DNA of 64,000 nt from an uncultured Anaerolineales bacterium (GCA_964489525.1 CAZAYY010000010.1:68934-132933), one strand, 5' to 3'. Positions 1-10,387 are shown, counted from the stretch's first letter. Notes: generated by a model from the sequence alone, not told the origin. Translations and numbers: made by a program.

Positions 1-218
1 TCCTCACCATGATAGGCGAGCAGACCGAGTGGATGTTCACTTTTAGCCAGGAGATTGCAGAAACTGGCACGATTCCCTGTGCTCCCAGCAGCGTGAAAGT
101 CTTTGACCGGGATGATGAACCACATACACCAGCAACCATTCGTGGCCTTATCGCGGTTAAATAGCTTTGCTACATCATCAATAAAATCACTCGTTACCTT
201 TTCGATTCTAAGCATCAT
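1..218 (-). CDS. GNAT-family N-acetyltransferase, N-terminal part (gene runs off the left edge)
   Basis: Own translation of the minus strand from tandem ATG ATG at 218/215, with GGAGG 5 nt upstream: MMLRIEKVTSDFIDDVAKLFNRDKATNGCWCMWFIIPVKDFHAAGSTGNRASFCNLLAKSEHPLGLLAYHGE. Open to the window edge, so absent from the ORF track. The CWCMWF / GLLAY pattern recalls GNAT acetyltransferases. Confidence 0.45.
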   Translation of the reverse strand, partial: MMLRIEKVTSDFIDDVAKLFNRDKATNGCWCMWFIIPVKDFHAAGSTGNRASFCNLLAKSEHPLGLLAYHGE

Positions 219-269
219 CTCTACCTCCATCTCGCTAAAGGGTGCTTTCTGGGTGATGAAAATTATACT

Positions 270-324
270 CCTTGCCCCTGCCTCTGCCCGGCGTTATAAT
301 CTTTTACATGAACGCACTATTTTC
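270..324 (+). repeat. 55-bp direct repeat copy 1 carrying a sigma70-like promoter (TTGCCC 272-277, 17-bp spacer, TATAAT 295-300) and an ATG 7 nt after the -10
   Basis: 41/44 identity over the first 44 bp with 2702-2745. The ATG at 308 begins the MNALFSD... ORF. The spacing is compatible with a leaderless transcript. Confidence 0.6.
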
Positions 325-562
325 TGACACCGCCCCCGAAGCCGAAGCCGTGCTGATCCGCCTGCTGCGCCAGGCGCCATCCTGGCGTAAGCTGGAGATG
401 GTAGATCAGTTAAACCAGTCGGTAAAACTTTTAGCCTTGACCGGTTTACACCAGCGTTTTCCGTTAGAAGATGATGAACGCATTCGCAGGCGATTGGCCG
501 ACCTGTTGTTGGGGGAAGAAATGGCGTTGAAAGTATATGGCCCACTTCCTCAGGAAGCATGA
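308..562 (+). CDS. small hypothetical protein (84 aa), upstream partner of the nucleotidyltransferase gene
   Basis: In-frame ATG of ORF 272..562 (MNALFSDTAPEAEAVLIRLLRQ...). The stop overlaps the next start (ATGA at 559-562), indicating translational coupling. No family recognised. Confidence 0.5.
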   Translation: MNALFSDTAPEAEAVLIRLLRQAPSWRKLEMVDQLNQSVKLLALTGLHQRFPLEDDERIRRRLADLLLGEEMALKVYGPLPQEA

Positions 563-1140
563 GCATGTTACCAGAATCAGTCAGCGTATTAATGTCGGTA
601 GTGATGGTTTTCGAGCGGTTGGGCATTCCTTACCTGGTTGGCGGCTCCATGGCTTCCGCTCTTTACGGTGTTGCGCGCTCGACCCTGGATGCGGATATTG
701 TTGCTGATATGCGGCAGAATCAGGTAAGCGCCCTGGTCGCCGCGCTTGGCGATGACTTCTATGCGGATGATCAAATGATCCGCGGGGCGATTGAACATCG
801 CGGTAGATTCAATTCGATCCACCTCACAACGATGTTTAAGGTGGATGTCTTTATTCGCAAAGAACGCCCTTTTGACCAGATACAATTCGAACGACGGGTT
901 GAGCAGATTTTCGCCGCCAACCCTGTACAAAAAGCCTTTATGACCACCGCCGAGGACATCATCCTCGCCAAGCTTGAGTGGTATCATCTGGGTAACGAAA
1001 TTTCCGACCGGCAGTGGCGGGATATTCTGGGGGTTCTGAAAGTACAGGCCGGGCGGCTGGATTATGATTATTTGCAGCAATGGGCCGCCGAACTGAATGT
1101 CGCAGACCTGCTTCAGCGTGCCCTGAAAGAAAGCGAATAA
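559..1140 (+). CDS. Pol-beta-fold nucleotidyltransferase family protein (MNT/AbiEii-like), putative toxin-antitoxin-type module with 308..562
   Basis: GGSMASALYGVARSTLDADIV matches the G[GS]-x9-13-DxD nucleotidyltransferase signature. 193 aa in a two-gene overlapping arrangement. Confidence 0.6.
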   Translation: MSMLPESVSVLMSVVMVFERLGIPYLVGGSMASALYGVARSTLDADIVADMRQNQVSALVAALGDDFYADDQMIRGAIEHRGRFNSIHLTTMFKVDVFIRKERPFDQIQFERRVEQIFAANPVQKAFMTTAEDIILAKLEWYHLGNEISDRQWRDILGVLKVQAGRLDYDYLQQWAAELNVADLLQRALKESE

Positions 1141-1148
1141 ACGATAGC

Positions 1149-1565
1149 ATAAACCTCTTCACCCACGCCAAGCACTGTACTCAGCGCCAACGACACGCAT
1201 GAAATCCGAAGCGCCGCTCGCCGCACGCATGCGCCAGCGCACCCTGGATGAGTATATCGGCCAAGCGCAACGCAGTTGCACCGAGCACCATCCTCGGCCC
1301 CGGAAAGCTGCTGCGCCGGGCCATCGAGGCGGACCGGCTGTTTTCGTCCATCATCCTGTGGGGGCCGCCGGGCACGGGCAAAACCACCCAGGCCATGTGC
1401 ATTGCCAACCAGACCCAATCGCATTTTGAAACCCTCTCGGCTGTACTGGATGGCAAAGCCCGGCTGGTGGAAGTGGTTGAAAAAGCCCTGGAGCGCCGCA
1501 AGCTGTACCGCAAACGAACCATCCTTTTCGTGAAGGACATGGTAGAAACACTTAATTGGGCCTAA
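1149..1565 (+). pseudogene. rarA: degenerate duplicate of the 5' third of rarA (start codon ATG->ATA, two ~18-19 nt insertions, frameshifted)
   Basis: Aligns with 4279-4650 at offset 3130/3094. The core 1289-1512 versus 4383-4606 has only 6 mismatches in 224 bp, while the flanks are much more diverged. The reading frame is split between ORFs 1199..1429 and 1248..1565. It ends at a TAA inside GCCTAAC (1560-1566). Confidence 0.8.
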
Positions 1566-1625
1566 CTACTAATTATACTGCTAATATGCAGTATAGCATG
1601 CGGTTTGATATAATATACTGCATAT
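1560..1625 (-). promoter_or_regulatory. candidate attI / intI regulatory region
   Basis: GTTAGGC (canonical GTTRRRY integron core) reads on the minus strand at 1566-1560, about 140 bp upstream of and divergent from intI. An AT-rich tract holds three copies of the 8-mer TATACTGC: 1574-1581 direct, 1588-1595 inverted (forming TATACTGC-N6-GCAGTATA), and 1614-1621 direct. Confidence 0.35.
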
Positions 1626-1703
1626 GTCCTAAAAAGTCTTTTCTGCACGGATACAATACCAATGCCATAATTCTAGCATGGATCTTAAAAAACGGAGTCT
1701 TCT

Positions 1704-2696
1704 TTGACCGAACCCATTCCCCAAAAACCCAAAAAACTGCTCGACCAACTGCGCGACGCCATCCGCATCAAGCACTATTCTTATTCCACCGAGAAAACGT
1801 ATGTCCATTGGGCAAAGCGTTACATTCTCTTTCATAAAGCGAAACAAGGTTTCGCCCGTCACCCAGCAGAAATGGGCGCGCCGGAGATTGAAGCCTTTCT
1901 TTCACACCTGGCCCAAGAAGCTAATGTCTCAGCGTCCACCCAAAACCAGGCTTTCAATGCCCTGCTTTTTCTCTATCGGAATGTGCTGCAGATTGAATTG
2001 GATGCCCCGATCCATGCTTTGCGCGCCAAACGCGGCCAACACTTACCAACGGTGCTCTCCAGGCATGAAGTGATTCAGGTGCTGGACGGGATGCAGGGGC
2101 TGCACCAGCTCATGGCTCGCCTGCTGTACGGCTGCGGCCTGCGCTTGATGGAATGCCTGCGCCTGCGCGTCAAAGACATTGACTTTGAGCAGTCCCAAAT
2201 TGTCGTGCGCGAGGGCAAGGGCGAAAAAGACCGCCTGACCATGCTGCCCACCAGCCTGGTGGAACCGTTAAAAGCTCAGATTGCATTTGTGCACAAACAG
2301 CACGCCAGTGATCTGTCCAATGGCTTTGGCTCGGTGGAGCTTCCATTTGCCCTGGCGCGCAAATATCCCAACGCCGACAAAGAATTCGCCTGGCAGTATG
2401 TTTTTCCCTCCGACCGGCTCTCAACCGACCCGCGCAGTGGGATTACCCGCCGCCATCATCTGGATCCCAGCGGGTTGCAGCGCGCGGTGAAGGCAGCAGC
2501 GAAACTATCGAAAATCAATAAGCCAGTCAGCCCGCACACCTTCCGTCATTGCTTTGCCACCCACCTGCTGGAGGCTGGGTACGATATCCGCACCGTGCAG
2601 GAACTGCTCGGACACAAGGATGTCAAAACCACGATGATCTACACCCACGTGCTCAACCGCGGTCCGAAGGCGGTGCGCAGCCCATTGGATGAATAG
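1704..2696 (+). CDS. intI: integron integrase (IntI-type tyrosine recombinase), apparently intact
   Basis: 330 aa with a TTG start and GGAG 7 nt upstream. Colinear with IntI1 as I recall it: [57 protein letters not shown]. The IntI-specific insertion is present ([37 protein letters not shown]), as are [12 protein letters not shown] and [14 protein letters not shown]. Confidence 0.9.
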
Positions 2697-2701
2697 GTGT
2701 A

Positions 2702-2756
2702 CCTTGCCCCTGCCCCTGCCCGGCGTTATAATCTTTGCCATGAACATCCTGTTTCC
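2702..2756 (+). repeat. 55-bp direct repeat copy 2 (promoter TTGCCC 2704-2709 / TATAAT 2727-2732, ATG 2740)
   Basis: Starts 5 nt after the intI stop. Its ATG opens only a 13-codon ORF, MNILFPNLRPSRK (2740-2781), which shares MN.LF with the 308 gene. That ORF's TGA abuts the ATG of the AlbA_2 gene. Confidence 0.6.
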
Positions 2757-2782
2757 CAATCTCCGCCCCAGCAGGAAATGAA

Positions 2783-4165
2783 ATGCCCGGTGAACTAGAT
2801 TCCTGGCTGCAAGTTGGCGAAGGCGAACAACTGGAGTTCAAGCTCCAGTGGGCTGATTCGGCTTTGGAAACGCTGGCCGCATTCGCCAACACGCGTGGCG
2901 GAACGTTATTGGTCGGCGTTTCGGATGCTGGCCAAATCAGCGGCTGGAATGGGAATGATAAAGAGCAGCGAGCGATTGTGGATCAAATCGCGGACGGACT
3001 GCGCCTGGAACCCCTGGTGAGAATTATTTCGGATGAACGCGGTCGGGTACTGTGCATTTCGGTCGCTGCCGCCGGTTTACCGATTTCGCTGCGTGGACGC
3101 TATTTCCAACGCCTGGGCAACACCACCCGCCAACTTTCTCCCGAAACGTTAGGCCGCCTGTTTATCGAAAAATCTGGCGCTTCCTGGGACAAACAACCCA
3201 CCGCCGCCGGCCTGGACGAGATTGACCCGGCTGCCGTGCAGCGTTTCTTGCGCCTGGCGCATGACCGGCTGCCTGAAGCCAGCGAGACTGAACCGGTGGA
3301 GAGTGTCTTACGCAAGTTGGATTTATTAACCGATGATCAACTGCGGCGCGGGGCCTTACTGTTATTTGGCCGGCGGCCACAAAGCGATTTGCACATGGCA
3401 TATGTGCGTATGGGGCGTTTCAAGACTGATACCATCATCGTGGATGATAAATTCATCGAGGGCAACCTTTTCCAGCAGCTTGACCAGGTGATGCAGTATT
3501 TCCGCCAATATTTGCAGGTGCGTTTGGAGATCAATTCACGCATCAGCGAGGGCAAAAGCATGTTGGAGGCTATCCAGCGCCAGGATATTTGGGATTATCC
3601 ATTGGACGCGCTGCGCGAAGCGGTCATCAATGCCCTGATTCATCGCGATTATTTTGACTCTACCGGGCATACCAGCATTCGGGTGTATGACGACCGAGTC
3701 TATATATGGAACCCGGGCGAACTACAGCCAGGTATGACCGTAGATGACCTGCTGCGCCGCCCCCATGACTCACGTCCGCGCAATCCGTTACTGGCGCGGG
3801 TTTTCTACTATGCCGGCTGGATCGAACATTGGGGCAGCGGCGTCACTCGCATCCTGGACTTGTGCCAGGCGCAGGGATTGCCGGCGCCGCAGTTTCGTTC
3901 TGCCAGTGGGCGCTTTGAAGTCGCTTTCACCAAAAGCCTGTACACTGTAAACAGGATGCTTCCAGATGGATTGAGTGAGCGCCAGACCAAGACGCTCCAA
4001 TGGGTCTTAGAGCACAGTCGGATCAGTAATTCAGAGTATCGAAGCCTTTTCCAGGTGTCAGCGCGTACAGCCAGCCGGGAATTGGCAGCGTTGGTACAAC
4101 AAGGCATTTTGGAACAGATAGGGCGCAGCGGCCCCTTTGTATACTACCAATTAAAGACATCATAA
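2783..4165 (+). CDS. AlbA_2 (Schlafen-like) DNA-binding domain protein with RecG-C-terminal-like HATPase_c_4 domain and C-terminal wHTH
   Basis: N-terminus GEGEQLEFKLQWADSALETLAAFANTRGGTLLVGVSDAG (AlbA_2 pattern). Middle EAVINALIHRDYFDSTGHTSIRVYDDRVYIWNPG (HATPase_c_4 pattern). C-terminal wHTH-like SERQTKTLQWVLEHSRISNSEYRSLFQVSARTASRELAALVQQGIL. Confidence 0.7.
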   Translation: MPGELDSWLQVGEGEQLEFKLQWADSALETLAAFANTRGGTLLVGVSDAGQISGWNGNDKEQRAIVDQIADGLRLEPLVRIISDERGRVLCISVAAAGLPISLRGRYFQRLGNTTRQLSPETLGRLFIEKSGASWDKQPTAAGLDEIDPAAVQRFLRLAHDRLPEASETEPVESVLRKLDLLTDDQLRRGALLLFGRRPQSDLHMAYVRMGRFKTDTIIVDDKFIEGNLFQQLDQVMQYFRQYLQVRLEINSRISEGKSMLEAIQRQDIWDYPLDALREAVINALIHRDYFDSTGHTSIRVYDDRVYIWNPGELQPGMTVDDLLRRPHDSRPRNPLLARVFYYAGWIEHWGSGVTRILDLCQAQGLPAPQFRSASGRFEVAFTKSLYTVNRMLPDGLSERQTKTLQWVLEHSRISNSEYRSLFQVSARTASRELAALVQQGILEQIGRSGPFVYYQLKTS

Positions 4166-4168
4166 TCA

Positions 4169-4224
4169 CGCCAATCACGCCAAGATTGCGCCATCAATGC
4201 GCCAAATGCGCCACAAACGCGCCA
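4169..4224 (+). repeat. array of six helically phased CGCCA(A) motifs
   Basis: CGCCA starts at 4169, 4178, 4189, 4200, 4209 and 4220 (spacings 9, 11, 11, 9, 11; mean 10.2 bp). The array lies immediately after the AlbA_2 stop and 55 bp upstream of rarA. Two 19-bp direct repeats follow (4235-4253 and 4257-4275, 15/19 identical). Confidence 0.6.
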
Positions 4225-4278
4225 AACATAGTCAAGATGAAACATTAAGTGACATGATATGAAACGGTAACTGACACC

Positions 4279-5691
4279 ATGGACCTCTTCACCCACGCCA
4301 TGAACGACCGCATGAAAAGCGAAGCCCCGCTCGCCGCCCGGATGCGCCCGCGCAACCTGGACGAGTATATCGGGCAGGAACACATCCTCGGCCCCGGAAA
4401 GCTGCTGCGCCGGGCGATTGAGGCCGACCGGCTGTTTTCGTCCATCATCCTGTGGGGGCCGCCGGGGACGGGCAAAACCACCCTGGCCATGTGCATTGCC
4501 AACCAGACCCAATCGCATTTTGAAACCCTCTCGGCTGTACTGGATGGCAAAGCCCGGCTGGTGGAAGTGGTTGAAAACGCCCTGGAGCGCCGCAAGCTGT
4601 ACCGCAGGCGCACGGTGCTGTTCGTGGACGAAGTTCACCGCTGGAACAAGGCCCAGCAAGATGCCCTGCTGCCGCATGTGGAAAACGGAACCATTACCCT
4701 GATTGGCGCCACCACTGAAAACCCGTATTTCGAGGTGATTGGGGCGCTGGTTTCCCGCTCGCGGGTTTTCCAACTGCGCCCGTTGGAAAACGAGCATGTG
4801 CGCCTGCTGCTGGAACGTGCCCTGCACGACCCGGAACGGGGTTATGGCAAATTGAAGGTGCAGGTCGCGGAAGATGCCTTTGCACACCTGATTAACGTGG
4901 CCGGGGGAGACGCTCGCAATGCCCTCAACGCCCTCGAACTGGCGGTGGAATCCACCCCGGCGGGGGAGGATGGCATCATTCAGGTGACGCTGGACGTGGC
5001 CCAAGAATCCATCCAGCGCCGGGCGGTGCTGTACGACAAGGACGGCGACGCCCACTACGATACGATTTCGGCGTTCATCAAATCCGTGCGCGGCTCGGAC
5101 CCCGATGCGGCCCTCTACTGGCTGGCCAAGATGCTCTACGCCGGGGAAGACCCGCGCTTTATTTTGCGCCGGCTGATTATCCTGGCGGGGGAAGATATTG
5201 GCATGGCCGACCCGCAGGGCATGGTGGTGGCCAGTGCGGCTGCCCAGGCGTTTGACTACATCGGGCTGCCCGAGGGCATTTACCCGATTGTCCATGCCGT
5301 GCTCTACCTGTCCACGGCGCCCAAGTCCAACTCGGCCACCCACTATTTCAAAGCGTTTGAGCTGATTGAACAGCAGGGTAAAACCGATGTCCCGCTGCAC
5401 CTGCGCGACAGCACCCGCGACGCCAAAGCCCTGGGGCACGGTAAAGATTACCAGTACCCCCACGAAGACCCGGCGCATTTTTTGCCACAGCAGTACCTGC
5501 CCCGCGAGGTGTTGGGCACTTATTTCTACCGGCCTTCCAGCCAGGGCTACGAGGCAGAAATTGCCGACCGCCTGGAGCGCTGGCGCGCCGCCCAGCAGGC
5601 CGCCCTGGGGATTGAAGAAACCCAAACCCTGCCAGAACTTAGCGAAAAGAAAATCATCGAAATCAAGGGCAAACACAAGCTCAGTAAATGA
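4279..5691 (+). CDS. rarA: replication-associated recombination protein A (RarA/MgsA AAA+ ATPase)
   Basis: 470 aa. Walker [49 protein letters not shown], and the C-terminal MgsA_C-type YQYPHEDP motif. Confidence 0.92.
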
Positions 5692-5697
5692 TATGAT

Positions 5698-6348
5698 ATG
5701 CGGGCAATCCAGAAACCCATGCCCCAGGAGTTCGCGATGCCCACCATCTTACTGATCCGCCACGGAGAAAACGAATACACCCGCACAGGCAAGTTAGCAG
5801 GCCGCCTGCCCGGTGTACACTTAAACGAAACTGGCCGCCAGCAGGCTGAAAAATTGGCCAGGGTGTTGGCCAATGCCCCGGTCAAAGCCATCTATGCCAG
5901 CCCGTTGGAACGCACCCAGGAAACCGCTGCGCCCCTGGCTCAGGCGCTGGGGCTGGATGTAACCATCCGCCCTGGCTTAATCGAAACCGGCATTGGCGAT
6001 TGGGAAGGCCAAACCCTCAAAGCACTGCGCAAGTTGAAAGAATGGAAGGTCGTCCAGGCCAACCCGGCCCGCTTCCGCTTTCCCAATGGCGAATCGTTTT
6101 GGGAATGCCAGCAGCGCATCGTGGCGGAGATTGAAGCGATTGCCGCCCAACACGAACCCAAAGATCTGCTGGTGTGCGTCAGCCATTCCGACCCCATCAA
6201 ACTTGCCGTTGCCCACTACCAGGGCCTGGCGCTGGATTTATTCCAACGCATCATGATTTCCACGGCCTCGATTACCACGCTGTATATAGGGGAACACGGT
6301 GCCGCTGTGGTCAACCTGAACGTTCCGGCGGTTTTGGAGTTTCGTTAA
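5698..6348 (+). CDS. histidine phosphatase family protein (phosphoglycerate-mutase-like; MSMEG_4193-type putative phosphomutase)
   Basis: ILLIRHGENEY (RHG motif), ASPLERTQETA, SHSDPIK. The real start may be M8 or M14 (5719/5737). Confidence 0.8.
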   Translation: MRAIQKPMPQEFAMPTILLIRHGENEYTRTGKLAGRLPGVHLNETGRQQAEKLARVLANAPVKAIYASPLERTQETAAPLAQALGLDVTIRPGLIETGIGDWEGQTLKALRKLKEWKVVQANPARFRFPNGESFWECQQRIVAEIEAIAAQHEPKDLLVCVSHSDPIKLAVAHYQGLALDLFQRIMISTASITTLYIGEHGAAVVNLNVPAVLEFR

Positions 6349-6533
6349 GTTTCCCACCACTGGCAAAAGGTCCCTCCAGCTGCGCCGTTCGAGACGACAT
6401 ATCAAAAGTGCCGTCGGCTGCCATTCTGAACTTTTTCCGTTTGTTCTCCCCAAAAGGGAGCACGCAAATGTTGTTATTGCATCCATTCCCCATCCCCCTG
6501 TCCCCCTTCCCGGCGGGAAGGGGGAATTCTTAG

Positions 6534-6583
6534 GGATTGGCCACCTGGCGGGTATTGCCCGCCAGGTGGCCAATCCCTTTTTT
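6534..6583 (+). terminator. intrinsic terminator-like hairpin
   Basis: Perfect 19-bp inverted repeat GGATTGGCCACCTGGCGGG / CCCGCCAGGTGGCCAATCC with a 5-nt loop, followed by CTTTTTT. A second small hairpin, CCCCCTTCC-N-GGAAGGGGG, lies at about 6502-6525. Confidence 0.6.
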
Positions 6584-6813
6584 ACTCCCCGCCCCAAAGC
6601 CTGGGGGGTGGTTGGGGGTGGGGTTGGAAAGTGAGAACCGCAAATTCTAACAACATTTGCGGCCACCTCCCCAAAACCACAGGCGGTAACCGGGGGTTGA
6701 TTCTGGTATACTTCCCATACAAAAGCATCCCTGCGCCTCCTACCGGAGGGCCAGGCCATGCGGTAGGATGATATTTGGAAAATTCTTTGATTTGAGGCTG
6801 GTACATTTTTCCT

Positions 6814-7371
6814 ATGGCACAAGAAATTGAACTGAACCCCGTAACCCATATCACCGTAGACGCAATCGGGCAGCCCGGTAAGCGCGTTTTTTACATCCAG
6901 GGGCAAAAAGATGCCCGCACCATCACCCTGATTATGGAAAAGTTCCAGGTGCAGTCCCTGGCAGTGCATGTGGAACAGTTTATGGCCGAACTGCAGCAGA
7001 AATTCCCTCACCTGGCAGAAGCCTCATCCGAATACAACGAAGTCAACATGCGCATCCAACCCCCTGTAGACCCGCTGTTTCGGGTCAGCGAAATGTCGCT
7101 GGCTTATGACAACAGCCTGGACATGGTGGTGATTGCTGCCAACGAAATGATGCCTGAAACCGGGGAAGAAGAAACCACAGAAAAAAGCGCAGAAGAAGAC
7201 GCTGAAGGCCGGATCGTACGGTTTTGGTGTTCTCGCTCCCAATGCAGGGCGATGGCCCATTGGGGCATGGAAGTGGTAGGGCGCGGCCGGCCTTTGTGCA
7301 CCCAGTGCGGCGCACCCATTGACCCTGAAGAAGGCCATTTTTGCCCCAAGAAAAACGGGCATCGCAAATAG
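6814..7371 (+). CDS. DUF3090 family protein
   Basis: MAQEIELNPVTHITVDAIGQPGKRVFYIQG... with a C-terminal CTQCGAPIDPEEGHFCPKKNGH zinc-ribbon-like motif. The family assignment is from memory of the actinobacterial/Chloroflexi DUF3090 family. Confidence 0.75.
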   Translation: MAQEIELNPVTHITVDAIGQPGKRVFYIQGQKDARTITLIMEKFQVQSLAVHVEQFMAELQQKFPHLAEASSEYNEVNMRIQPPVDPLFRVSEMSLAYDNSLDMVVIAANEMMPETGEEETTEKSAEEDAEGRIVRFWCSRSQCRAMAHWGMEVVGRGRPLCTQCGAPIDPEEGHFCPKKNGHRK

Positions 7372-7381
7372 CGGAGGTTGT

Positions 7382-8122
7382 GTGACCGCGCCAGACCCCA
7401 ACCAGAACCCAGGCGAACTTTTGCCCCTGCTCGAAAAGGGAGAAATTTCGCTCGAAGGGCAGTTCGTTTGGGGCTCCAACTATACCCTGCTGGTCAATGT
7501 TACCAATGGCAGCCAGCACACCCAGGCAGTGTACAAACCCACCCAGGGCGAGCGCCCCTTGTGGGATTTTCCAGCCGAAACCCTGGGGCTGCGCGAAGCT
7601 GCAGCTTACCAGGTGAGTGCATTTTTACAATGGCCGCTGGTACCGCCCACCGTCTACCGCCGCGATGGCCCGATGGGGCCGGGGTCTTTGCAGGCATTTA
7701 TTGAACATGACCCGGAATACCATTTTTTCACTTTCAGCGAAAGCGACCGCGCCAGGCTGCGCCCGGTGGCCCTGTTCGACCTGGTGATTAACAACGCCGA
7801 CCGCAAAGGCGGCCACCTGCTGGTGGATTCCCAGGGCCAAATCTGGGCCATTGACCACGGCATTTGTTTTCATGAAATGCCCAAGCTGCGCACCGTAATT
7901 TGGGATTTCGTAGACGAACCCCTGCCGCCCGAACTGTGCACAGGCCTGGAGCAGCTGCGCGACCAGCTTTCCGCGGGCAGCGCGCTGGAACAAAGGCTGC
8001 TCGCATGCCTGTCTGCGGGGGAACTGCGGGCCATGCAGCGGCGGGTTGACCGGATCTTAACCCGGCAAAAATTCCCACCCCCGCCCCGCAACAGCCGCCC
8101 CTACCCCTGGCCGTTGATTTAA
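7382..8122 (+). CDS. SCO1664 family protein (PI3/PI4-kinase-like fold)
   Basis: GTG start at 7382 with GGAGG at 7373-7377, just after the DUF3090 stop. Kinase-like NNADRKGGHLL and IDHGICFH motifs. Confidence 0.75.
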   Translation: MTAPDPNQNPGELLPLLEKGEISLEGQFVWGSNYTLLVNVTNGSQHTQAVYKPTQGERPLWDFPAETLGLREAAAYQVSAFLQWPLVPPTVYRRDGPMGPGSLQAFIEHDPEYHFFTFSESDRARLRPVALFDLVINNADRKGGHLLVDSQGQIWAIDHGICFHEMPKLRTVIWDFVDEPLPPELCTGLEQLRDQLSAGSALEQRLLACLSAGELRAMQRRVDRILTRQKFPPPPRNSRPYPWPLI

Positions 8123-9607: not shown

Positions 9608-10387
9608 TTAAGTGTATTTGGGTTCGCGCTTCTCGCGGAATGCAGCCAGCCCTTCTTTGTGTTCGGGCTGCTGCCCGGCAATATCCTGGACATGGGCTTC
9701 GTAATCCAACACTTCTTCCAGGTTGGGAAAAACCGCCTTGTTAAAGTCGCGCTTGGCCAAACCCATGGCATGCACCGGACCTTTGGCCAGTTCAGCAGCC
9801 CAGGCTGCAGCCGCCTCCGTTAGGGTTTCGGCTGGCACCACCCGGTTGACCAGCCCCCAGTCCAGGGCCTGCTCGGCGGTTATGGGCTGATTGCTGAAGG
9901 CAAACTCGGCGGCGCGCCCCAGGCCAATCAGCCTGGGCAGGGTGAGCGAAACTGCCGAATCGGGCGCCAGGCCAATGCCCAAGAAGCCCACCACAAAACG
10001 GGCGTTCTCGGCAGCAATGCGCAAATCGCAGGCCAGGGCAATGCCCAGGGCAGCGCCTGCCACCGCACCGTGAATGGCGGCAATGACCGGTTTTTCCAAC
10101 TGGCGCAGCTGCAAAACCAGCGGGTTATAGGTGTTTTGCAAATGTTTGCGAAAAGAAACATGCTCCCCTTCACCAAACTCAGATACATCCTGCCCGGCGC
10201 TGAACAGCTTCCCGGCGCCTGCCAAAACCACCACCCGGGTTTGCGGGTCGCGCCCGGCCTGCTTAAGCTGCTGCAGAAGGGCCCGCGTCATTTCGGAGTT
10301 AAACGCGTTGGCCTTTGGGCGGTTGAGGTAAATCGTCAGAACGCCTTCGTGCTGTTCCGAATGGATCGGGGTTTGCATTTCACTCAT
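9608..10387 (-). CDS. enoyl-CoA hydratase/isomerase family protein
   Basis: MSEMQTPIHSEQHEGVLTIYLNRPKANAFN..., AGKLFSAGQDV, AAIHGAVAGAALGIALACD. Start moved to ATG 10387, which overlaps the upstream gene's stop by 8 nt. ATG 10378 is an alternative. Confidence 0.85.
   Translation of the reverse strand: MSEMQTPIHSEQHEGVLTIYLNRPKANAFNSEMTRALLQQLKQAGRDPQTRVVVLAGAGKLFSAGQDVSEFGEGEHVSFRKHLQNTYNPLVLQLRQLEKPVIAAIHGAVAGAALGIALACDLRIAAENARFVVGFLGIGLAPDSAVSLTLPRLIGLGRAAEFAFSNQPITAEQALDWGLVNRVVPAETLTEAAAAWAAELAKGPVHAMGLAKRDFNKAVFPNLEEVLDYEAHVQDIAGQQPEHKEGLAAFREKREPKYT

Follow-up and report, generated by a model that had tools for sequence, protein, structure and literature searches.

How did the 5′ end of rarA come to stand twice in one bacterial genome, once in decay and once as part of an intact gene, on either side of an integron integrase? 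The question is raised by a 64,000-nucleotide (nt) stretch of DNA (GCA_964489525.1 CAZAYY010000010.1:68934-132933), here called the window, whose host is a relative of the Anaerolineales (Chloroflexota). All coordinates are those of the whole window in a + strand reading, and labels of the form L### denote the related loci with which it was compared. The answer favored here, to which we assign a probability of roughly 0.55, is that the broken copy is the original 5′ end of rarA, displaced by a horizontally acquired module that restored the gene with a 5′ end of its own. Such modules would belong to a recurrent system that stacks at one point of rarA, probably by site-specific insertion, and gene conversion between the two copies would have followed.

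The intact gene encodes a protein of 470 amino acids (aa; NF009881, 724 bits). Its codons 1-116 (4279-4626, + strand) are what we consider the replacement 5′ end, and the rest of the gene follows at 4627-5691 on the same strand. The displaced and decaying copy of codons 1-116 lies at 1149-1532, also on the + strand, and stops at ..LFV in the Walker B motif. The two 5′ ends are 87.8% identical over 344 nt (blastn, E = 1.8e-125); the fragment starts with ATA (1149) where the intact gene has ATG (4279), and insertions of ~17 nt within 1171-1195 and ~19 nt within 1261-1288 (+36 nt in total) break its frame. They form direct repeats spaced 3130 bp apart, between which lie intI, the right copy of a '55-bp repeat', and an AlbA_2 gene. 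An earlier note on this DNA had described the colinearity, the ATA start, the two frame-breaking insertions, the repeats with what they bracket, and a central part with only 6 differences in 224 positions, and all of this holds in the alignments and with blastn. What it had called a strongly diverged last ~50 nt is, however, only in part rarA: 1513-1532 are 20 nt of recognizable rarA codons, whereas 1533-1560 (+ strand) are a 28-nt tail, AAGGACATGGTAGAAACACTTAATTGGG, that is not rarA and is conserved across genomes. Homology to rarA thus ends at the Walker B codon (1532), and the tail forms the insert-side arm of the left junction. The layout is a gene-restoring one: the insert lies between direct repeats of its target, of which the distal is truncated and the proximal runs on into the intact gene.

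The same junction recurs in related genomes. The rarA loci of 80 species representatives, all of them metagenome-assembled genomes of Anaerolineales or other Chloroflexota whose RarA is at most 81% identical to that of the window, were compared together with up to 10 kb of upstream sequence each. Four of the 80 carry an N-terminal rarA fragment upstream of the gene (L005, L008, which has two, L056, and L074). In all of these, as in the window, the fragment ends at the same codon, ..LFV, and no IntI match was found within the ≤10 kb of upstream sequence fetched for them. The tail that follows reads AAGGATGTTCGAGAATCACTTAATTG in L005 and L008 and AAGGACATGGTAGAAACACTTAATTG in the window, and it is more diverged in L056 and L074. 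A search with a degenerate pattern of the tail gave 31 metagenome loci; in 18 the tail directly follows rarA ..LFV, in 4 the same tail and cargo have another left flank, and 9 are unrelated. The junction ..LFV^AAGGA..CACTTAATTG (a caret marks a join) is found in L005, L008 (twice), L081, and the 18 metagenome loci, with a diverged form in L056 and L074. Altogether, the tail is conserved in at least 25 independent Anaerolineales loci. It had no match in viral contigs, occurs only once in the window, and was not found in the further integron loci that were retrieved; a scan of both strands of the reported integron and rarA loci gave no reverse-strand copy.

More than 12 different sequences lie to the right of TTAATTG in the tail, most of them without an integrase. 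They include the 3′ end of an AbiEii toxin gene with its stop codon in the tail (6 loci); minus-strand cassette attC sites in L100/L110, L101, L088, and, at a distance of 57 nt, L081; and, in other loci, a membrane-protein gene, DUF6398 genes, a promoter, or, in the window, the attI core. The minus-strand AbiEii gene ends in ...RIKPN and a stop within TTAATTG in L005, L093, L107, L113, L116, and the older fragment of L008. A membrane-protein gene in L008 (...VVN, then stop) likewise stops inside the tail, so different convergent genes take their stop codon from the tail. Among 49 open reading frames (ORFs) from 24 inserts, a Pfam census found AbiEii to be the commonest family, along with SNF2 helicases, an ISL3 transposase, and one integrase, the IntI of L081. 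Stacks are also observed, namely two fragments in L008 and L102, two tails in L101, and intI followed by a fragment and tail in L095 and L112. L101 was first taken for a tail module at a site other than rarA; this was rejected, since it is a stack, in which a second fragment with an internal deletion is present together with a diverged tail. The recurrence of one codon in many Anaerolineales identifies rarA as a stacking site for mobile modules. These modules would be rich in toxin-antitoxin and defense genes, start with the 28-nt tail, and finish with a rarA 5′ segment. The newest arrival would shift older modules and their rarA fragments leftward.

Which of the two 5′ ends in the window is the original one can be judged from what lies upstream of each. 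Ahead of the fragment, p83 (308-562) and a nucleotidyltransferase (NTase)-like gene (559-1140; a weak Pfam match to the DUF6036 NTase family) fill 308-1140 on the + strand; they are a probable toxin-antitoxin pair that was once in an operon with rarA. In L008, the intact rarA is directly preceded by genes homologous to p83 and the NTase (75% and 80% aa identity), and the junction there, ...GAAAGAAAGCGAATAAGCGACAGC^ATGGAT, corresponds to ...GAAAGAAAGCGAATAAACGATAGC^ATAAAC at the window fragment. The shared NTase-rarA junction marks the fragment as the former working 5′ end, still with its old upstream operon. The intact gene has a different upstream neighborhood. Its spacer from -59 to -1 is 82% identical to that of L096 and ~25% identical, a random level, to all other loci; L096 carries a homologue of the AlbA_2 protein (86.7% aa) in the same position ahead of rarA. 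The coding sequence itself is 0.88-0.90 L096-like up to nt ~116 and 0.67 thereafter. Consequently, the present 5′ end came with the AlbA_2 module.

The comparison with unoccupied sites agrees with this origin. Upstream sequence of 2 kb or more is available for 65 GTDB species loci; 61 of these carry no fragment within that sequence, so that the distribution is patchy (4/65 with a fragment). The empty-site comparison proposed in the earlier note, together with the p83-NTase operon as in L008 and the L096-like new 5′ end, supports its first reading, that of an insertion targeting rarA that supplied a replacement 5′ end. In L117, the order from intI rightwards is intI-promoter-rarA; its contig starts 257 nt left of intI, and a fragment further left is possible.

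The cargo is also more conserved than what surrounds it. Between the window and L117, IntI is 90.6% identical in aa (85.7% in nt), RarA 79.2% (71.6% in nt), and the next three genes 54-58% in aa. Similar gradients are seen with L081 (IntI 86.7%, RarA ~78%, neighbors 52-56%) and with L096 (AlbA_2 86.7%, RarA 77.7%, neighbors 54-61%). Overall, the cargo proteins IntI and AlbA_2 are 87-91% identical, against 77-80% for RarA and 52-64% for the downstream genes. The genes downstream of the intact rarA, encoding a His-phosphatase, a DUF3090 protein, and a PI3/4-kinase-like protein, are syntenic in the 80 relatives.

The divergence between the two copies within each genome carries further information. 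Identity of fragment and intact gene is 98.9% in L008, 97.7% in L081, 96.6% in L110, 95.4% in L096, 93.1% in the window, 88.7% in L074, 83.6% in L005, and 76.7% in L056. The 40 differences between the L074 copies are 36 synonymous and 4 nonsynonymous (synonymous divergence, dS, 0.62; nonsynonymous divergence, dN, 0.015), and the L096 copies differ by 15 synonymous changes and 1 nonsynonymous change. Such synonymous-biased differences imply that the copies diverged in working genes of different lineages and were joined later, which is what insertion of a replacement 5′ end predicts. Decay of a duplicate in situ was rejected, as it would not give this bias, and, with so many fragments disrupted, selection for a truncated protein is an unlikely cause. 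A duplication in situ of the 5′ end that the host already had was likewise rejected, given the synonymous bias and the different promoter versions of the two copies in L110.

Identity along the window copies is uneven. Of the mismatches over the 348 aligned positions, counted along the intact gene, 11 fall in nt 1-104, 6 in the 224 positions of nt 105-328, and 7 in the 20 positions of nt 329-348. The central patch (1289-1512 versus 4383-4606) thus has 6/224 mismatches, against 18/124 in its flanks (Fisher p = 7e-5). The patch is 97% identical between the two window copies and at most 82% identical to any of the 20 copies compared from relatives; therefore, the homogenization is specific to the window genome. 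A sharply bounded, genome-specific segment of high identity is what gene conversion leaves, and the sequences support such a conversion of the 224-bp core. In the intact gene, the homogenized patch covers 4383-4606, and its left edge coincides with the end of the L096-like part, which runs from -59 to ~+116.

Could the whole arrangement instead be an ancient, vertically inherited partial duplication of rarA, kept alike by concerted evolution, with the genes in between accumulating independently and no mobile unit involved? The same junction in distantly related Anaerolineales and the clear gene conversion in the window would fit. Nevertheless, the patchy occurrence among species representatives (4/65), the stacks of two fragments, the cargo that is better conserved than its flanks, and the all but purely synonymous divergence of the L074 copies, without conversion, speak against it, and identity of the tail is incompatible with the age implied by neighbors that are only 55-60% identical. 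We consider this explanation unlikely. The third reading of the earlier note, an old paralogous fragment with a recent conversion patch, is supported in its second half, for the 224-bp core.

An artefact of assembly, either a chimeric join or a collapsed repeat, also has to be weighed. The source is probably metagenome-assembled, and exact-sequence look-ups of the window IntI and RarA returned no independent copy. Yet the two copies differ by both indels and substitutions and have unique flanks, and the same architecture is found in many independent assemblies, including some whose contig names are in the style of long-read assemblers (L008, L081, and L096). Such an artefact is hardly credible.

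How the displacement by a gene-restoring module took place is suggested by the junctions. Around the end of the fragment lies the dyad GACCATCCT-CTTCGTGA-AGGATGTTC, with imperfect 9-bp inverted arms and an 8-bp spacer. The corresponding dyad of the intact gene is GACCATCCT-CTTCGTGG-ACGAAGTTC, and its right arm matches the first 9 nt of the tail at 7 positions. The putative attB-like target in the intact rarA would be 4609-4636 on the + strand (..ACGGTGCTG-TTCGTGG-ACGAAGTTC), as read from the junction sequences, and the point of joining would fall after the GTG at 4626, in the center of a CTTCGT/ACGAAG inverted repeat seen in relatives. This repeat is a natural palindrome of the L-F-V-D-E codons. 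The dyad is laid out like the core at which a tyrosine (or serine) recombinase acts, CTTCGTG being the common overlap, and the tail would then be the element-side arm of a site-specific reaction. Several observations favor such a reaction. Seven loci that differ in the cargo to their right, and by 10-25% in the rarA codons next to the tail, have a tail that is identical at 26/26 positions; many cargoes are attached at the same nucleotide; and insertions occurred between copies that are only 77-89% identical. Furthermore, in 4 loci the tail is kept and the rarA part is lost, and the break falls no more than 10 nt from the tail's left border. As most modules have no recombinase, the enzyme would have to act in trans.

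Several findings weigh against the favored explanation. IntI is the only recombinase family among the 49 module ORFs and in the window, and it is absent from most modules. The rarA junction has no GTT core in the required register, so the G^TT logic of IntI does not fit it, and when 106 nt spanning the junction were folded as DNA, for both strands in three genomes, the fragment end plus tail showed no attC-like fold, only a 9-bp hairpin (z = -1.94 to +1.10). The dyad could be the scar of a single ancient illegitimate event that was later spread by homologous recombination. Homologous exchange would leave breakpoints where they are observed within the rarA segment, at nt ~104-116 and 328, and the near-identical copies in L008, L081, and L110 fit homology-dependent insertion from close relatives. 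Besides, the tail search was seeded with the tail itself, which makes its conservation partly a matter of ascertainment; among the junctions found without this bias (n = 7), 3 are diverged. Finally, the window begins only ~1.1 kb left of the fragment, so its left flank is missing and the full stack is out of view.

A rival account is based on homology only. In this scheme, ..LFV^tail arose once by an illegitimate event, the modules then spread in a RecA-dependent manner through the 348-bp rarA segment, either by Campbell insertion of circles excised between the repeats or by double crossover of linear DNA, and the tail is carried along passively. Homology would come from the promoter and the rarA segment, the mosaic breakpoints and the 95-99% identical copies in L008, L081, L110, and L096 are as expected, and modules without a recombinase need no further explanation. 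In contrast, the copies in L074 (88.7%) and L056 (76.7%) differ all the way up to the junction, and an identity of 77-89% argues against RecA-dependent insertion in those cases. Nor would a passive tail be expected to stay at 26/26 beside codons that differ by 10-25%, to be followed at the same nucleotide by more than 12 cargoes, or to outlast the rarA part with a break within 10 nt of its edge. This account is possible, and we give it about half the weight of the site-specific model.

What, then, is the role of the integrase? intI (1704-2696, + strand) is an intact ORF of 330 aa with a TTG start. Its product matches TIGR02249 with 472.8 bits (cutoff 265) over model positions 1-313 of 315, which places it in the integron-specific subfamily, and Anaerolineae metagenomes abound in homologues with 77-94% identity. 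The 64-kb window has no other tyrosine recombinase, and a search of it for serine recombinases, seeded with one resolvase sequence, gave none. The attI region occupies 1560-1703 (+ strand), with the core GCCTAAC at 1560-1566 (GTTAGGC on the cassette strand), TACTAATTATAC, a palindrome TATACTGC-N6-GCAGTATA at 1574-1595, and a further ATATACTGCAT half-site. In an alignment (A1) of 1560-1703 with L081, L082, and L084, the window shares with L084/L085 the core GCCTAAC, TATTAATTATAC, the palindrome ATACTGC-N6-GCAGTAT, and the further ATATACTGCAT. The terminal TAA of the fragment ORF (1563-1565) lies inside GCCTAAC, as the earlier note had pointed out, and this heptamer aligns with the attI core of L082 and L084, where cassettes with GCCTAAC..GTTAGGC attC sites start at the core point. 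In L084/L085 (IntI 87%), a canonical cassette array lies ahead of intI, its small minus-strand genes separated by GCCTAAC...GTTAGGC attC sites. By homology, the heptamer at 1560-1566 is a genuine attI core that belongs to a bona fide integron integrase.

The earlier note had the fragment ending exactly at this core. This is true of its ORF, which stops there, but homology to rarA ends 28 nt before. The distinction matters for the second of its readings, in which IntI made the rearrangement by recombining attI with a secondary site inside rarA. The stop codon within the core, the standing of IntI as sole recombinase in the window, and the proximity of intI to rarA in L081, L117, L095, and L112 speak for this reading. 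Against it stand the 28 nt between 1532 and the core, which recur at the same ..LFV^tail junction where the copies have neither attI nor intI between them (L008, L096, L110, L074, L056, and L005) and are parted from attI by a cassette in L081. As far as the sequence can be read, the junction has no G^TT in the orientation needed, and a single event between attI and a secondary site gives no duplicated, restored 5′ end. This reading is disfavored, and we hold it to be very improbable. The duplicated arrangement without attI or intI between the copies is what the earlier note had named as refuting its case for the neighboring integrase; the integrase is a neighbor and part of the cargo, not a demonstrated cause.

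Although IntI does not account for the rarA junction, it best explains why the tail abuts attI in the window. The order in L081 is fragment-tail-(57 nt)-attC-cassette-attI-intI-promoter-rarA, with one attC-bearing cassette between tail and attI; relative to it, the window lacks the cassette and has AlbA_2 added after the promoter. The tail can thus be regarded as the outer boundary of a cassette array, and it abuts attI when the array is empty. On the cassette strand, the window reads G^TTAGGCCCAATTAAGTG and the AbiEii-type junctions of L093 and L113 read ATTAAGCCCAATTAAGTG. A deletion mediated by IntI is plausible, with attI as one partner and, as the other, either the last attC or a GTTRRRY-like site at the end of an AbiEii gene. 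Because the attI of the window aligns with the array boundary of relatives, cassettes of the window, if any, would lie left of 1566 on the minus strand. A home-made R''/R' and folding scan of limited sensitivity (2 of at least 4 L084 attC sites recovered) found no attC-like site in 1-1720 or 2690-4290, and no cassette lies between tail and core. Further left, a partial minus-strand ORF (3-218) extends past the edge of the window and is oriented as an integron cassette would be; the stretch from it to the promoter at 272 gave no attC, and an acetyltransferase-like label for it was withdrawn (no Pfam match, 72 residues available).

Taken together, the events under the favored explanation would be as follows. 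In the ancestral state promoter-p83-NTase-rarA, a module would have been inserted at the Walker B codon (..LFV^DEV..), bringing its own promoter and the first 116 codons, so that rarA stays intact. Insertion would take place at the dyad GACCATCCT-CTTCGTG(A/G)-A(G/C)GA(T/A)GTTC and be catalyzed in trans. IntI is the sole candidate for such an enzyme seen at the loci, and a host Xer-type or other enzyme elsewhere in the genome is possible. The module of the window would consist, in order, of the tail, an integron platform (attI and intI with an empty array), a rarA-type promoter, AlbA_2, a spacer, and the new 5′ end. The direct repeats would then have exchanged sequence, by gene conversion or homologous recombination, to give the 224-bp patch with 97% identity, while the unprotected 5′ part of the fragment decayed. 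The last step would be the loss of cassettes, likely by IntI-mediated excision, which would leave the tail against the attI core. As a tentative extension, which we think rather doubtful, the modules could form a second cassette-like accretion system on top of the integron, in which units without a recombinase are captured at the Walker B dyad of rarA. Its modules would comprise toxin-antitoxin, AbiE, Schlafen/AlbA_2, and SNF2 genes, and even whole integron platforms; its site would consist of the 348-bp gene-restoring arm and the 28-nt tail; and its recombinase would act in trans, possibly IntI on a substrate that is neither attC nor attI.

There remain the promoter copies and the cargo. Copy A of the rarA-type promoter (272-310, + strand) is the left copy of the '55-bp repeat' and has TTGCCC at 272-277, TATAAT 17 nt further at 295-300, and an ATG another 7 nt on at 308. 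Scoring 10/12 in the promoter scan, 272-300 is predicted to be a strong sigma-70-type promoter, which would drive p83-NTase. Copy B (2697-2781, + strand) has TTGCCC at 2704-2709 and TATAAT at 2727-2732, followed by a 13-codon relic ORF (2740-2781); an identical promoter and relic ORF precede AlbA_2 in L096. The same element stands directly ahead of rarA in L117 (intI-promoter-ATGGACC), L005 (both copies), L110, L081, L114, and L006. The '55-bp repeat' is evidently a portable copy of the native rarA promoter. In relatives, the rarA ATG lies 7-8 nt past the -10 box, and for this reason the transcripts are probably leaderless. The modules carry a promoter copy, and + strand cargo (toxin-antitoxin pairs, AlbA_2) is lodged between it and the start of rarA; the intact rarA of the window, without such a promoter immediately upstream, may be co-transcribed with AlbA_2. 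The AlbA_2/Schlafen-type cargo gene (2783-4165, + strand) has Pfam SLFN_AlbA_2, HATPase_c_4, and helix-turn-helix (HTH) domains. It is followed by the module spacer (4166-4278, + strand), the last ~60 nt of which are common to L096. Tandem Repeats Finder (TRF) detects 9-10-nt (A/T)GCGCCA repeats at 4164-4226 (AATCACGCC / AATGCGCCA; six to seven copies), present as a single copy in L096.

Some observations on the integrons and flanks stand apart from the rarA question. Integrons of the same IntI clade (85-89%) are found at unrelated chromosomal positions (L082-L085 and L119-L121). The palindrome at 1574-1595 and a third ATATACTGCAT half-site (~1612-1625) are kept in all integrons of this clade and together form a candidate operator, with a spacing unlike that of an E. 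coli-type LexA box. At the attI core position, the rarA-adjacent integrons of L081 (~9855-9862) and L117 (~100-110) have AGTTAC, not GCCTAAC, which would be either a variant or an inactivated core. In two integrons that are not at rarA, L119 (8979-9100) and L082 (10979-11090), intI is followed by a degenerate-looking rarA promoter with ATGGA/ATAGA and, downstream, by a common motif, GCTCAAATCGTGCT(G/A)CCTAAC, with a core-like heptamer. These motifs hint that the platform left the rarA locus together with its promoter, and that a second IntI-type site may bound it. A + strand toxin-antitoxin pair (MNT/HEPN or AbiEii-like) comes directly after intI in L121 (9236-9996), L095 (161-882, reoriented), and L120 (2725-3506). 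Downstream of rarA in the window, between the His-phosphatase gene and the next gene, 6513-6593 form a strong hairpin with several sub-threshold microRNA-type Rfam matches on both strands, probably a terminator or a repeat element; an Rfam scan of window positions 1-8000 gave nothing relevant.

These results bear on the open question of how 'sedentary' chromosomal integrons move between genomes. Here, an integron platform that is 87-91% identical between genomes whose core neighbors are 55-80% identical is enclosed in a module with defined boundaries that restores the gene and occupies one fixed position in rarA; if the accretion system proposed above is real, it would offer a route for the horizontal movement of such platforms. 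The rarA site is also a defined integration hot spot that stacks toxin-antitoxin and defense genes in a poorly studied but environmentally abundant phylum, as well as a clean natural case of 5′-end replacement over 116 codons of a protein gene with gene conversion afterwards. For annotation, it follows that a 'rarA pseudogene' is a junction relic and the '55-bp repeat' a set of promoter copies, rather than independent features. A literature search found no pertinent paper on a link between integrons and rarA.

Several known systems share parts of this picture. SXT is a gene-restoring integrative element that integrates at prfC (PMC2791158). Like it, the rarA modules insert in the 5′ part of a conserved housekeeping gene. 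In the work of Hochhut and Waldor (1999), SXT reportedly supplies a new promoter and 5′ coding end. It is, however, a conjugative element of ~100 kb with its own Int/Xis, and its attP and attB share a short, nearly identical sequence; the rarA modules replace 348 bp plus a promoter, are mostly 1-6 kb long without an integrase, and stack. Stacking is familiar from composite islands of the staphylococcal cassette chromosome (SCC) and from ccr-less pseudo-SCC elements at rlmH. Tandem accretion is also known for tycheposons at tRNA genes (bioRxiv 10.1101/2020.12.28.424599). In both, as at rarA, elements that arrive one after another at a single site displace the older ones inward, with partial target copies left between them, some units have no integrase, and the cargo is adaptive or defensive. 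Nevertheless, tycheposons and SCC use 3′ ends (tRNA, rlmH), short repeats, and identified recombinases, whereas the rarA system uses codon 116, a repeat of ~350 bp, and the 28-nt tail.

With respect to integrons, the window resembles the cassette-less In0 type, while CALIN are attC clusters without an integrase (both as defined by IntegronFinder, PMC4889954). Like In0, it has a complete intI and attI and no cassette found, and its relatives have attC cassettes beside the tail, either with intI (L081) or without it, as in CALIN (L110, L101). Unlike In0 and CALIN, the platform of the window forms part of the cargo of a larger module that restores a gene. Its array is bounded on the outside by a fixed, conserved stretch that adjoins a rarA fragment, and its intI is co-directional with a strong upstream promoter. 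The genome-specific 224-bp tract with 97% identity and diverged flanks on both sides resembles the concerted evolution of direct repeats, although gene conversion accounts only for the mosaic and not for the origin of the duplication. As a whole, the rarA system differs from SXT, tycheposons, and SCC in its long 5′ replacement, its conserved tail, and the presence of an integron platform among its cargo.

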